Shown here: in pieces, positions 42,142 to 51,377 of the stretch | Layout of the letters: every line of letters begins with the position of its first letter | Numbering within the stretch: position 1 is the first letter of the stretch | NCBI RefSeq assembly: GCF_003790525.1 | Contig: NZ_CP033635.1 | Reading direction: 5' to 3' (one strand) | From: Escherichia coli | GTDB taxonomy: Bacteria; Pseudomonadota; Gammaproteobacteria; Enterobacterales; Enterobacteriaceae | DNA length: 64,000 nt | Notes under the pieces: model-generated | The model's database searches: none | Told to the model about the DNA's origin: nothing | What the model saw: the letters and a program-made list of their open reading frames with translations, nothing else | Made by a program: the position numbers and the translations under genes

Positions 42142-42888
42142 ATGCATTATGCCGTTGTTGTCATGCTTGAACTGCTTTGCTGTATTCACGCTTACCGTAC
42201 CGGACAAGAGCGGTACTGGATTTTTATCATTTTCTGTTTTCCGGTGATTGGCTGCGTGGCGTATTTCGTCATAGTGATGTTGCCTGAAACGGGCGCTGAC
42301 CGTCACGGGCATACTTTGCTGATGCGCCTGCAGGACAAACTCAACCCTGAGCGCCACCTGCGCAAATTAACCGAAGAACTGGCGATTGCCGAGACGAATC
42401 AAAACCATTATGCGTTGGCTAATGAACTGGTGTGTCTGGGGCGTTATCACGAAGCTGTTCCCCATTATCAGCAGGCGTTAAGCGGGATATTCGTCCATGA
42501 AGCGGCAATGATGCTAAGCCTGGCGCAGGCGCAGTTTGCCATTCAGGAGTTCGCCGCCTGTCAGCAGACGCTGGAAGATGTGATGCGTTATAACCCCGAT
42601 TTTCAGTCGGCAGACGGGCATTTGTTATTTGCCAGAGCGTTAGCCGCACAAGAAAAATACGCTGATGCGGAAAGCGAGTTTGAGGTGTTGATTTCTTATT
42701 ACTCCGGCCCGCAGGCGCGTATTTACTATGCGGAAATGTTGGCGAAAATGAGTCGGTTACGTGAAGCCAACGAGCAGTATATTGCTGTGGTTGATACGGC
42801 TAAACGTTCAAAACCACATTATAGAAAACACCACCGGGAATGGATTAAGACCGCCAATGAACGGCTGAAGCAGAGTGTGGTGCAATGA
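42142..42888 (+). CDS. Hypothetical membrane-anchored protein: N-terminal PLDc_N-like two-helix anchor plus C-terminal helical-repeat (TPR-like) domain
   Basis: 248-aa ORF; N-terminus RYWIFIIFCFPVIGCVAYFV resembles PLD-nuclease N-terminal membrane domains; the remainder is predicted alpha-helical. Not present between livF and ugpB in the K-12 order as I recall it. Confidence 0.6.
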   Translation: MHYAVVVMLELLCCIHAYRTGQERYWIFIIFCFPVIGCVAYFVIVMLPETGADRHGHTLLMRLQDKLNPERHLRKLTEELAIAETNQNHYALANELVCLGRYHEAVPHYQQALSGIFVHEAAMMLSLAQAQFAIQEFAACQQTLEDVMRYNPDFQSADGHLLFARALAAQEKYADAESEFEVLISYYSGPQARIYYAEMLAKMSRLREANEQYIAVVDTAKRSKPHYRKHHREWIKTANERLKQSVVQ

Positions 42889-48749: not shown

Positions 48750-50495
48750 ATGATAAAACCGACGTTTTTACGCCGGGTGGCCATTGCTGCTCTGTTCACA
48801 GGAAGTTGTTTTAGTACGGTAGCCGCGCCACCTGCGCCGTCTCCTGTTTCTTACGGCGTGGAGGAAGATGTCTTTCATCCGGTACGCGCGAAACAGGGGA
48901 TGGTGGCGTCTGTCGATGCCACTGCCACCCAAGTGGGGGTAGATATTCTAAAGGAGGGCGGGAATGCCGTTGATGCTGCCGTGGCAGTGGGCTACGCGCT
49001 GGCGGTAACGCATCCGCAGGCAGGAAATTTGGGCGGTGGTGGTTTTATGCTGATCCGCTCGAAAAATGGCAATACCACCGCTATCGATTTCCGCGAAATG
49101 GCACCCGCCAAAGCGACCCGCGATATGTTCCTTGATGATCAGGGCAACCCGGACAGCAAAAAATCACTCACTTCGCATCTGGCTTCTGGTACGCCCGGTA
49201 CGGTAGCAGGTTTCTCGCTGGCGTTGGAGAAGTACGGCACCATGCCGTTGAACAAAGTGGTGCAACCGGCGTTTAAACTGGCACGCGATGGTTTTATCGT
49301 TAACGACGCGTTGGCTGACGATCTCAAAACCTACGGTAGCGAAGTATTGCCGAATCACGAAAACAGCAAGGCTATCTTCTGGAAAGAGGGCGCGCCGCTG
49401 AAAAAGGGTGACAAGCTGGTGCAGGCGAACCTGGCAAAGAGCCTGGAGATGATTGCCGAAAACGGCCCGGACGAATTCTACAAAGGCACGATAGCGGAAC
49501 AGATTGCCCAGGAGATGCAGAAAAACGGTGGCTTGATCACTAAAGAAGATTTAGCGGCGTATAAAGCGGTCGAACGTACACCGATTAGCGGCGAATATCG
49601 CGGGTATCAGGTTTACTCGATGCCACCGCCATCTTCCGGTGGGATTCATATCGTGCAGATCCTCAATATCCTGGAAAACTTCGATATGAAGAAATATGGC
49701 TTTGGCAGTGCCGACGCGATGCAAATCATGGCAGAAGCTGAGAAATACGCCTACGCCGACCGCTCGGAATATCTTGGCGATCCGGATTTTGTCAAAGTAC
49801 CGTGGCAGGCGCTGACCAATAAAGCCTATGCCAAATCTATTGCCGATCAAATCGATATCAATAAAGCGAAGCCATCCAGCGAAATTCGCCCCGGCAAGCT
49901 TGCGCCTTATGAGAGTAATCAAACTACCCATTACTCAGTGGTGGATAAAGACGGTAACGCGGTGGCGGTGACCTATACGCTGAACACCACCTTCGGTACG
50001 GGCATTGTCGCGGGCGAGAGCGGTATTCTGCTTAATAACCAGATGGATGATTTCTCCGCCAAACCGGGCGTACCGAACGTTTACGGGCTGGTGGGCGGCG
50101 ATGCCAACGCCGTCGGGCCGAATAAACGCCCGCTGTCGTCGATGTCACCAACCATTGTGGTCAAGGATGGTAAAACCTGGCTGGTCACCGGAAGCCCAGG
50201 CGGTAGCCGGATTATCACCACTGTGCTGCAAATGGTGGTGAATAGCATCGATTATGGAATGAACGTCGCCGAAGCGACCAATGCGCCGCGTTTCCACCAT
50301 CAGTGGTTGCCGGACGAGCTGCGTGTCGAAAAAGGGTTTAGCCCGGATACGATCAAGCTGCTGGAAGCAAAAGGTCAGAAAGTGGCGCTGAAAGAGGCGA
50401 TGGGCAGTACACAAAGCATTATGGTTGGGCCGGACGGTGAGCTGTACGGTGCATCCGACCCACGCTCGGTGGATGATTTAACTGCGGGGTATTAA
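48750..50495 (+). CDS. ggt: Gamma-glutamyltranspeptidase
   Basis: Start at MIKPTFLRR; signal peptide; autoprocessing Thr in QTTHYSV; GGT family. Confidence 0.95.
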   Translation: MIKPTFLRRVAIAALFTGSCFSTVAAPPAPSPVSYGVEEDVFHPVRAKQGMVASVDATATQVGVDILKEGGNAVDAAVAVGYALAVTHPQAGNLGGGGFMLIRSKNGNTTAIDFREMAPAKATRDMFLDDQGNPDSKKSLTSHLASGTPGTVAGFSLALEKYGTMPLNKVVQPAFKLARDGFIVNDALADDLKTYGSEVLPNHENSKAIFWKEGAPLKKGDKLVQANLAKSLEMIAENGPDEFYKGTIAEQIAQEMQKNGGLITKEDLAAYKAVERTPISGEYRGYQVYSMPPPSSGGIHIVQILNILENFDMKKYGFGSADAMQIMAEAEKYAYADRSEYLGDPDFVKVPWQALTNKAYAKSIADQIDINKAKPSSEIRPGKLAPYESNQTTHYSVVDKDGNAVAVTYTLNTTFGTGIVAGESGILLNNQMDDFSAKPGVPNVYGLVGGDANAVGPNKRPLSSMSPTIVVKDGKTWLVTGSPGGSRIITTVLQMVVNSIDYGMNVAEATNAPRFHHQWLPDELRVEKGFSPDTIKLLEAKGQKVALKEAMGSTQSIMVGPDGELYGASDPRSVDDLTAGY

Positions 50496-50500
50496 TATCT

Positions 50501-50529
50501 TAAGCCCTCTCCCGGTAGGTGAGGGCTTA
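50501..50529. terminator. Bidirectional hairpin between the convergent ggt and yhhY genes (TAAGCCCTC/GAGGGCTTA)
   Basis: 9-bp inverted repeat with an 11-nt loop in a 60-bp gap. Confidence 0.55.
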
Positions 50530-50555
50530 AATGACAAACGTAGATTGCAAATTCT

Positions 50556-51044
50556 CTATTTCACCCGCGCCATATAATACGCATCGACATATTCACCATT
50601 ACGCAGCGCGTACTTCTTGCCAGTCCCTTCAATCTCAAAGCCAAATTTTTTATAGACCTTAATTGCTGGCGCGTTATCGACGAACACCGTTAGCTCAATA
50701 CGATCTACCCGCAACCAGTTGTCGCACATTTCAATCATCTCTCGCATCAGGGCGCTGGCGACGCCGCGGTTCTTCCAACGGGAGTCGACACAGATACCAA
50801 AGTCGGCAACATGACTGCGGTGTGGGCGTTGTTGCACGTCAATGGTGAGATGGCCTACGACGATTCCATCAATACAGGCGACTAACTGCTTGATGCCGGG
50901 GCGAGCGGTGAGTCGTTCCAGCCACATTTGTTCTGAAGGATGAGGCACCTGTAGCGTGTTGTAATACACCTCCGGCTGGGCGTGAATCTGCCTGATGGCC
51001 TCGTAATCGCGTGTTTCTGCGTGGCGTATTACTATCTCACTCAT
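50556..51044 (-). CDS. yhhY: GNAT-family N-acetyltransferase YhhY
   Basis: Start at MSEIVIRHA (162 aa); GNAT motifs. Confidence 0.88.
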   Translation of the reverse strand: MSEIVIRHAETRDYEAIRQIHAQPEVYYNTLQVPHPSEQMWLERLTARPGIKQLVACIDGIVVGHLTIDVQQRPHRSHVADFGICVDSRWKNRGVASALMREMIEMCDNWLRVDRIELTVFVDNAPAIKVYKKFGFEIEGTGKKYALRNGEYVDAYYMARVK

Positions 51045-51144
51045 TCCTTTGTCCTCTTTGGGGTAAATGTCCCTTTCAACATCATTGACTTTCAAATGCG
51101 AGTCAAATGCATTTTTTTGCAAAAAGTGTTGGACAAGTGCGAAT

Positions 51145-51163
51145 GAGAATGATTATTATTGTC
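51145..51163 (+). promoter_or_regulatory. Fur box overlapping the ryhB promoter
   Basis: GAGAATGATTATTATTGTC closely matches the Fur consensus and lies immediately 5' of the RyhB +1. Confidence 0.8.
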
Positions 51164-51165
51164 TC

Positions 51166-51255
51166 GCGATCAGGAAGACCCTCGCGGAGAACCTGAAAGC
51201 ACGACATTGCTCACATTGCTTCCAGTATTACTTAGCCAGCCGGGTGCTGGCTTTT
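51166..51255 (+). ncRNA. ryhB: Iron-responsive small RNA RyhB
   Basis: Sequence GCGATCAGGAAGACCCTCGCGGAGAACCTGAAAGCACGACATTGCTCACATTGCTTCCAGTATTACTTAGCCAGCCGGGTGCTGGCTTTT matches RyhB as I remember it, ending in an intrinsic terminator (AGCCAGC/GCTGGCT plus T9). Confidence 0.92.
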
Positions 51256-51377
51256 TTTTTGACCTTTCGTTCTCAATTTATCCTCGGGAAGTGCTTGTGT
51301 TCGTTATGCGCACTCCAGTAGGAACCACGTCCGCTTTGCGCTAAGGTGTAAATAACCACCTTAAAAAGGACGAAATC

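Follow-up and report, generated by a model that had tools for sequence, protein, structure and literature searches.

In Escherichia coli the genes ggt and yhhY converge, and what lies between them differs from strain to strain. The K-12 interval holds several small genes and an insertion sequence and the DNA analysed here holds none, which raises the question of whether this short junction is the site as it stood before an insertion or an allele of its own kind. On the explanation that we favour, the window (the whole 64-kb stretch of DNA under study) would carry the empty allele of a multi-allelic accessory locus; this allele would represent the ancestral Escherichia state, and the block that other strains hold in its place would be exchanged by recombination in the flanking genes. 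We give this explanation as a whole a probability of about 0.65.

A short junction between ggt and yhhY

A sequence-only reading of the window had placed the ggt and yhhY stop codons in direct convergence, 60 bp apart, and both the open reading frame list and the RefSeq annotation of E. coli SMS-3-5 (NC_010498.1) bear this out (Table 1). In that annotation the two genes are adjacent at the same coordinates as in the window, which is 100% identical over 24 kb to SMS-3-5 and to more than 10 related strains. The Ggt encoded here shares 98% amino-acid identity with K-12 Ggt, and YhhY, a match to Pfam Acetyltransf_1 (5e-18), shares 94.4% with K-12 YhhY.

Table 1. Features of the ggt–yhhY junction and of its surroundings, in window coordinates
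Feature	Position	Strand	Basis or remark
Gene for a 248-aa tetratricopeptide-repeat protein	~42142-42888	+	between livF and ugpB, as in SMS-3-5
ggt (gamma-glutamyltransferase) CDS	48750..50495	+	ORF list and SMS-3-5 annotation; stop TAA at 50493-50495
ggt–yhhY intergenic spacer	50496..50555		exactly 60 bp; empty allele "A1" of the yhhY–ggt cassette site
Type-1 GC-rich hairpin	50500..50530	both	arms TTAAGCCCTC (50500-50509) and GAGGGCTTAA (50521-50530); inner pair 50511-12/50518-19
Position matching the left breakpoint	50526..50527		type-2 hairpin common up to ...GAGGGC(T), alleles diverging beyond
Empty-specific 29 nt (TTAAATGACAAACGTAGATTGCAAATTCT)	50527..50555		only in empty alleles A1 and A2, in no occupied allele
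yhhY stop TAG (CTA on the + strand)	50556-50558	-	
Right breakpoint of allele divergence	50556-50558		the yhhY stop codon, from the junction comparison
yhhY (GNAT N-acetyltransferase, 162 aa)	50556..51044	-	ORF list; ATG at 51044
Promoter-like site of RyhB	51130-51159		
RyhB small RNA	51195-51259	+	between yhhY and yhhX; Rfam RF00057, 83 bits
RyhB terminator	51234-51252		canonical hairpin and T-run
Genes for a RecQ-family helicase and a DprA-like protein	~56602-59900	+	between gntU and yhgN, as in SMS-3-5

The same reading had stated that K-12 carries yhhZ, yrhA, an IS1 copy and yrhB between these two genes and had taken the site in the window to be unoccupied. The K-12 sequence (NC_000913.3) has the order yhhY, yhhZ, yrhA (split by an IS1E that carries insA6/insB6), yrhD, yrhB, ggt, so that the stated gene order was accurate except for the small yrhD. 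Had K-12 possessed the same short junction, the comparison would have collapsed; its ggt and yhhY stops are in fact 3,454 bp apart. Homologues of the K-12 segment, sought as DNA by blastn and as protein by tblastn, are absent from the rest of the 64-kb window, and the site is indeed unoccupied there. The window is a cargo-free allele of the very position that holds the K-12 segment, and it differs from the K-12 allele not only in lacking cargo but also in having a different hairpin beside ggt and a 29-nt spacer that is absent from K-12.

The hairpin in the spacer

The spacer had further been described as filled by a bidirectional hairpin. A GC-rich hairpin, here called type 1, can form in both convergent transcripts, and the description was right in that respect; the hairpin covers only about half of the spacer, and does not fill it. 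It consists of a 10-bp stem with two inner pairs and lies 4 nt past the ggt stop and 25 nt past the yhhY stop. Folding predicts -20.0 kcal/mol for the + strand and -20.7 for the - strand (z-scores against shuffled sequences -3.2 and -3.4, respectively); only 2 and 1 of 200 shuffles fold equally well.

Convergent genes of enterobacteria may share a hairpin or terminator, and the same bacteria carry REP/boxC-type extragenic palindromes, of which Bachellier et al. are said to have made a survey. Like such elements, the window has a GC-rich palindrome right after two convergent stop codons. Unlike REP or boxC elements, its hairpin is single-copy: a sensitive blastn search with the 100-bp junction found one place per genome (median 1, maximum 2). 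An Rfam search returned no family for it either, and it was therefore rejected as a copy of a REP/BIME or boxC element or as a member of a known RNA family. A U-rich tract 3' of the stem is absent on both strands, the tail reading AUGACAAACG on the + strand and GAUAUUAAUA on the - strand, and a scan for consensus terminators did not call the hairpin although it called the RyhB terminator 700 bp away. As the hairpin comes without a U-tract, we only infer that it would act as a bidirectional terminator. Double changes occur in only 2 of its pairs among 7 Escherichia sequences, too few to argue from covariation.

The K-12 segment and its cargo

The yhhZ-yrhA-yrhD-yrhB segment of K-12 has been predicted to be a genomic island, "Gist34" (PMC3309015). 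Without IS1 the cassette is 2,675-2,680 bp long. The IS1E lies inside yrhA, flanked by its own 9-bp duplication (GACATTAAA); an IS1 occupies this yrhA position in 357 of 5,426 complete E. coli genomes, and IS1E is missing from about 90% of the genomes that bear the cassette. It is a later, secondary insertion into yrhA, found mostly in the K-12 lineage. The cargo has a G+C content of 0.34-0.43 (0.34 in E. coli), as against 0.54-0.57 in ggt.

YhhZ has an N-terminal T6SS_HCP domain (PF05638, E 1.6e-11, 45 bits against a cut-off of 23.5) and a weak C-terminal match to HNH (PF01844) that, at 17.4 bits, stays under the cut-off of 21.4. Earlier work calls the protein an "evolved Hcp" that bears an HNH domain (PMC2907695; PMC5714182) and places it in group 32 of the His-Me finger nucleases (PMC5714182). 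YrhB matches Imm35 (4e-23), while YrhA and YrhD are without a family in the Pfam search. YrhA is presumed to be the immunity protein of YhhZ: a YrhA homologue of 162-164 aa is encoded directly downstream of the full-length Hcp-HNH homologues checked, those of C. koseri, C. freundii and the metagenome contig L065.

Polymorphic T6SS effectors of the Hcp-ET type include the HNH-DNase Hcp-ET1 with its immunity protein ETI1, according to the summary of Ma et al. 2017 given in PMC6730261, where Hcp-ET1/ETI1 figures as an experimentally characterised effector pair for which T6SS delivery and neutralisation by the immunity protein are reported. K-12 is without a T6SS (PMC6730261), which makes the cassette an orphan in that strain. 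An orphan Hcp-HNH of an O22:H8 strain has been reported to be 99% identical to Hcp-ET1 (bioRxiv 10.1101/2024.03.05.583533), and an O22:H8 genome carries yhhZ-yrhA at 99.8% identity; taken together, the two observations indicate that YhhZ/YrhA are probably Hcp-ET1/ETI1. As in Hcp-ET systems, the cargo of the occupied alleles joins an N-terminal Hcp domain to a variable, putative toxin part at the C-terminus and includes an immunity gene downstream as well as orphan immunity genes, with the difference that this architecture belongs to the alternative allele and not to the window.

The cassette is decaying in some lineages. In PMV-1 (L055:3736-5654) its genes include annotated pseudogenes, with internal stops in yhhZ and yrhD and a frameshift in yrhA, and in O145:H28 (L056:3737-6143) yhhZ is frameshifted and has an internal stop and yrhB is frameshifted, again as annotated pseudogenes.

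Alleles of the site in E. coli

A census of 5,426 complete E. coli genomes revealed at least four alleles at this site, not two. The K-12 type, with the yhhZ-yrhA segment (yhhZ-yrhA-yrhD-yrhB), is found in 3,829 genomes (71%), and the empty junction of the 60-bp type, which includes that of ST131, in 985-988 genomes (18%). A third allele, in 343 genomes (6%) of the O157:H7/O55:H7 lineage and a few others, has a DUF4225 gene in an interval of 1,855 bp; a fourth, in 230 genomes (4%), retains only yrhB in an interval of 431 bp, all copies being at least 99% identical. The other genomes, about 40 (<1%), comprise among others IS1-mediated deletions and one probable artefact. Some 82% of E. coli have a haplotype block in place of the whole intergenic region. 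The segment had been called a lineage-specific islet, a description that does not survive its presence in 3,829 of 5,426 E. coli genomes and the occurrence of homologous cassettes at the same site in Citrobacter and Salmonella.

In all occupied alleles the ggt stop is directly followed by a hairpin that differs from that of the window, GGTTAGCGGCCCTCTTCGTGGGAAGAGGGC (type 2). The yrhB-only allele corresponds to the K-12 type over its first 338 nt (92-93% identity), and the DUF4225 allele of O157 keeps an 89-nt remnant of the yrhB 5' end adjoining the hairpin. With the same type-2 hairpin, the same left junction and these remnants of yrhB, the occupied alleles are of one origin.

Empty and occupied alleles can be found in closely related backgrounds. 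ST131 (empty) and PMV-1 (occupied), both B2, differ by 0.3% in yhhX and 1.1% in ggt, which suggests a recent exchange within E. coli. A sorting of yhhY alleles by occupancy was considered and rejected; they sort by background, and ST131, SMS-3-5 and PMV-1 cluster together.

Some rearrangements at the locus are of a different nature. In E. coli 730V1 (L007:8086-8783) and other strains, IS1 has removed or split parts of the cassette, leaving for example yhhY-IS1-yrhB-ggt; IS1 is actively remodelling the yhhY–ggt locus. In E. coli HS-02 (NZ_CP172818.1, L006:8053-8405), 353 bp of 82% G+C replace the spacer and the 3' end of yhhY after the type-1 hairpin, a stretch very unlike E. coli DNA that is probably an assembly or polishing artefact.

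Related cassettes at the same site in other genera

When YhhZ was compared with a protein database, full-length relatives at 71-74% identity came from Citrobacter, and many further proteins had only the Hcp part in common with it and carried other toxin domains, among them Gln_amidase and Colicin_D, at the C-terminal position. The context was checked for ten relatives, eight of which lie between yhhY (or yhhX) and ggt and the other two at other loci. The eight come from C. koseri, C. freundii, C. rodentium, C. portucalensis, two different S. enterica cassettes and two metagenome contigs.

The type-2 hairpin adjoins ggt in all the occupied loci examined (C. koseri, C. freundii, S. enterica L063 and the metagenome contigs L065 and L071), where 23-25 of its 30 nt are identical to the E. 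coli version. It was not found in other genera where the locus is empty, nor next to the related cassettes at the two other sites. The latter absence led us to reject it as a cassette-borne element or att site, and both absences together mark the type-2 hairpin as a component of the occupied haplotype that is linked to ggt. Between E. coli and Citrobacter, identity is 76-81% in the Hcp-coding part and 79-85% in the flanking genes.

Behind the Hcp-coding region the cargo changes from one allele to another. An Hcp-Gln_amidase gene is followed directly by Imm35 in L070, L071 and L068. Among these, the ENA metagenome contig L071 (L071:2309-3744) holds an Escherichia-type allele with the K-12 junctions, in which the Hcp-Gln_amidase toxin gene directly precedes yrhB (Imm35). 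Its identity with K-12 is 97.9% in the Hcp 5' part and 87% in yrhB, but the toxin module that separates the two is another one, that of the Gln_amidase; none of the 5,426 complete E. coli genomes has this module. Such a structure fits a history in which the Hcp 5' region was conserved, the toxin/immunity module behind it was replaced and yrhB stayed on as an orphan immunity gene. Judged from this arrangement, yrhB would be a cognate-type immunity gene for a Gln_amidase Hcp toxin and an orphan in K-12.

Arrays of orphan immunity genes are left by successive effector replacement in T6SS auxiliary clusters, as PMC6730261 relates from Kirchberger et al. 2017. The yhhY–ggt locus resembles them in that yrhB (Imm35) is kept by ggt while the upstream toxin differs, being Gln_amidase with its cognate Imm35 in L070/L071 and HNH with YrhA in K-12, and in that 230 genomes have an allele with yrhB alone. 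Unlike arrays in T6SS clusters, this one lies outside any such cluster, at a fixed site between two housekeeping genes, and an entirely empty allele segregates as well.

Two further ideas about the cargo and its flanks were discarded. The O157 DUF4225 protein has no similarity to the product of a 294-aa gene of the Citrobacter cassettes, to which it might have been related. Nor were Citrobacter-like flanks imported along with the cassette, for the yhhY and ggt 3' end of K-12 are ordinary Escherichia alleles with no tract of 15-20% divergence.

Since relatives of the cassette occupy the same site in Citrobacter and Salmonella, the yhhY–ggt interval is an old, syntenic Hcp-toxin/immunity locus whose content is most likely exchanged through homologous recombination in the flanks.

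Which state is ancestral

An outgroup scan with YhhY, using one genome per species, returned 45 loci. Folding covered 38 non-E. coli enterobacterial loci; in 38 of 38 the convergence of yhhY and ggt is direct, with spacers of 34-131 nt, and all 38 spacers contain a hairpin with a minimum free energy of -18 kcal/mol or lower; in other genera these are often REP-like or CCCTCTCCC...GGGAGAGGG-type palindromes. None of the 38 non-E. coli species representatives carries the cassette. An orthologous empty junction is present in five Escherichia lineages, each represented by one genome: E. albertii, E. whittamii, Escherichia sp. E1V33 and the strains E69 and SCPM-O-B-8794. Their flanks are 92-95% identical to those of the window, and the spacer of the window is matched at 57/60 positions in E69, 55/60 in sp. 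E1V33 and 52/63 in E. albertii. The orthologous junction in these five lineages and the direct convergence in 38 of 38 loci make it, on parsimony, rather probable that the empty junction is the ancestral state in Escherichia.

Franconibacter pulveris provides the one clear exception to direct convergence. Its yhhY–ggt interval (L033:8751-11261) contains an ABC-transporter operon (ATPase, permease and lipoprotein; metNIQ-like by eye), and the interval can thus host unrelated cargo in another genus.

The polarity may also be reversed. The cassette and its hairpin are syntenic across at least three genera, and the Hcp part is about as diverged as the flanks, so the locus could predate Escherichia, the empty allele being an old loss. 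In its full form this alternative holds that a cassette locus already existed before Escherichia, Citrobacter and Salmonella split, and that the 60-bp junction is a loss allele that part of E. coli retains and that went to fixation in the other Escherichia lineages. It draws on the homologous cassettes that E. coli, four Citrobacter species and S. enterica have in this position, on a conserved inner order (Hcp-ET, immunity, Imm35, ggt), on an identity of the Hcp part between E. coli and Citrobacter similar to that of yhhX and yhhY, and on a type-2 hairpin that is kept in all occupied loci with about the divergence of ggt and is absent from the empty loci of other genera. However, with the cassette in 0 of 38 non-E. 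coli representatives and five Escherichia lineages empty, it needs many losses or a long-lived polymorphism. Moreover, occupied alleles have neither the type-1 hairpin nor the 29-nt spacer, so that deletion of a cassette could not produce them, and a cargo as strongly AT-rich as that of E. coli (0.34 G+C) is unexpected after a very long residence. We regard this alternative as rather unlikely, yet worth keeping in mind.

A more speculative proposal concerns how cargo came to this place. The yhhY–ggt interval might be an ancient docking site for orphan Hcp-toxin/immunity cassettes in Escherichia, Citrobacter and Salmonella at which the conserved type-2 hairpin, beyond any part as a linked terminator, served as an entry point for a dedicated, recombinase-independent capture mechanism, for instance by hairpin- or terminator-directed illegitimate recombination. 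If true, this would explain the occupancy of the same site in several genera without a mobility gene; we consider it a long shot.

Alleles replaced from stop codon to stop codon

In the favoured explanation, the empty and occupied forms are alternative alleles. The window had been taken to provide the pre-insertion junction sequence, and alignment to the K-12 interval had been proposed as the way to find the insertion boundaries and any target-site duplication. When run, the alignment yielded neither, because the alleles differ over the whole intergenic region; only IS1 showed a duplication, its own of 9 bp. On the ggt side, the match to the last 30 nt of ggt and the 30-nt type-2 hairpin, present in 4,520 genomes, goes no further, the occupied alleles diverging from one another immediately past the GGGC of this hairpin. 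On the yhhY side, the divergence extends to the stop codon and includes it, with TAG, TAA and TGA all occurring among the alleles. No occupied allele has pieces of the 60-bp spacer flanking its cargo. Occupied and empty alleles thus differ from stop codon to stop codon, and the junction of the window is an alternative allele, not a clean pre-insertion site.

The same features bear on whether the K-12 segment is a discrete mobile islet, transposed or site-specifically integrated into a junction of this sort, as its low G+C content and the IS1 within it could suggest. Apart from the divergence over the entire interval, the longest direct or inverted repeat from end to end in four occupied alleles measures 7 nt, a length reached by 17-28% of shuffles, and hence gives no sign of a duplicated target site or of terminal repeats. 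The annotations of the K-12, PMV-1, O145, AF46, O157 and CUVET16-559 alleles contain no integrase, and no transposase other than that of the internal IS1E; no tRNA lies in window positions 40000-64000. The IS1E itself sits in yrhA with its own duplication and is missing from most cassette-bearing genomes, and the type-2 hairpin is absent by the related cassettes at two other chromosomal sites, so that it cannot be a cassette-borne attachment site. Integration of a mobile islet is, in our view, highly improbable.

Whole-haplotype exchange by homologous recombination in ggt and yhhY appears to be the most economical reading of these data. We infer recombination in the flanks because other signatures are lacking and because yhhY and the ggt 3' end are mosaic and of raised diversity (5.8% and 3.9% within the species, as against 2.7% in yhhX); the AT-rich cargo (0.34 G+C, with 0.54-0.55 in ggt) and the near-identical flanks of ST131 and PMV-1 are also consistent with such an exchange. 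According to the mechanism that we propose, no transposase or integrase would have inserted the block into a junction like that of the window. Instead, homologous recombination in ggt and yhhY, the conserved flanks, would bring the block in or take it out, and inside it toxin/immunity modules would be swapped behind the conserved Hcp-coding 5' part, older immunity genes such as yrhB being retained next to ggt. Alleles with yrhB alone, or with the DUF4225 gene and a remnant of yrhB, are derivatives. In the empty allele, the type-1 hairpin may provide a shared 3'-end or termination structure for the ggt and yhhY transcripts.

One allele does not follow this scheme. A2, an empty allele present in 97 genomes (among the empty ones), joins the type-2 hairpin to the 29-nt spacer. 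Its yhhY (L004:1860-2348, L005:1580-2068) has an internal tract, at about nt 60-450, that differs by 17-19% from all Escherichia alleles and by 25% from C. freundii and that looks like an import from another enterobacterium. Its yhhX is only 0.1-0.2% from that of B2 strains, and its background is B2-like. We did not adopt A2 as the true pre-insertion junction in view of the foreign yhhY tract, the mosaic background and the type-2 hairpin, which is otherwise linked to the cassette across genera. The A2 allele is not explained by simple two-sided homologous recombination.

Shorter matches were also followed. The 29-nt spacer was sought within cassettes as a possible deletion scar, with only chance matches of 6-8 nt, and a 7-nt match, AATGACA, near the yhhY-side end of the K-12 cassette was judged not significant.

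Finally, that the short junction is an assembly collapse or another artefact of the window sequence has next to no probability, given the same junction in 985-988 independent complete genomes, ST131 isolates among them, and the 24-kb identity with SMS-3-5 and more than 10 other strains.

Significance of the locus and neighbouring features

The variation between empty and cassette-bearing forms at ggt–yhhY is ordinary strain variation, already annotated and known. That SMS-3-5, a phylogroup-F strain, is without a small K-12 islet amounts to routine pan-genome variation, the islet having already been predicted to be a genomic island. What the present analysis adds is the frequency of the alleles over 5,426 genomes, the related cassettes at the same site in Citrobacter and Salmonella, and the recognition that a test based on aligning the junction and finding its boundaries fails here because whole intergenic haplotypes are exchanged. 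The locus could serve as a natural system for toxin/immunity turnover by homologous recombination at a fixed chromosomal site.

The window contains other features of note near the junction. The gene for the small RNA RyhB lies between yhhY and yhhX, with a promoter-like site and a canonical terminator (Table 1). Between gntU and yhgN, the window and SMS-3-5 carry a RecQ-family helicase gene together with a DprA-like gene; gntU and yhgN are adjacent in HS-02 and 730V1, and the RecQ gene is frameshifted in the O157 strain 122, which makes this another small variable islet in the window. Between livF and ugpB, where the window and SMS-3-5 have the gene for the tetratricopeptide-repeat protein, HS-02 has only a 398-bp gap.
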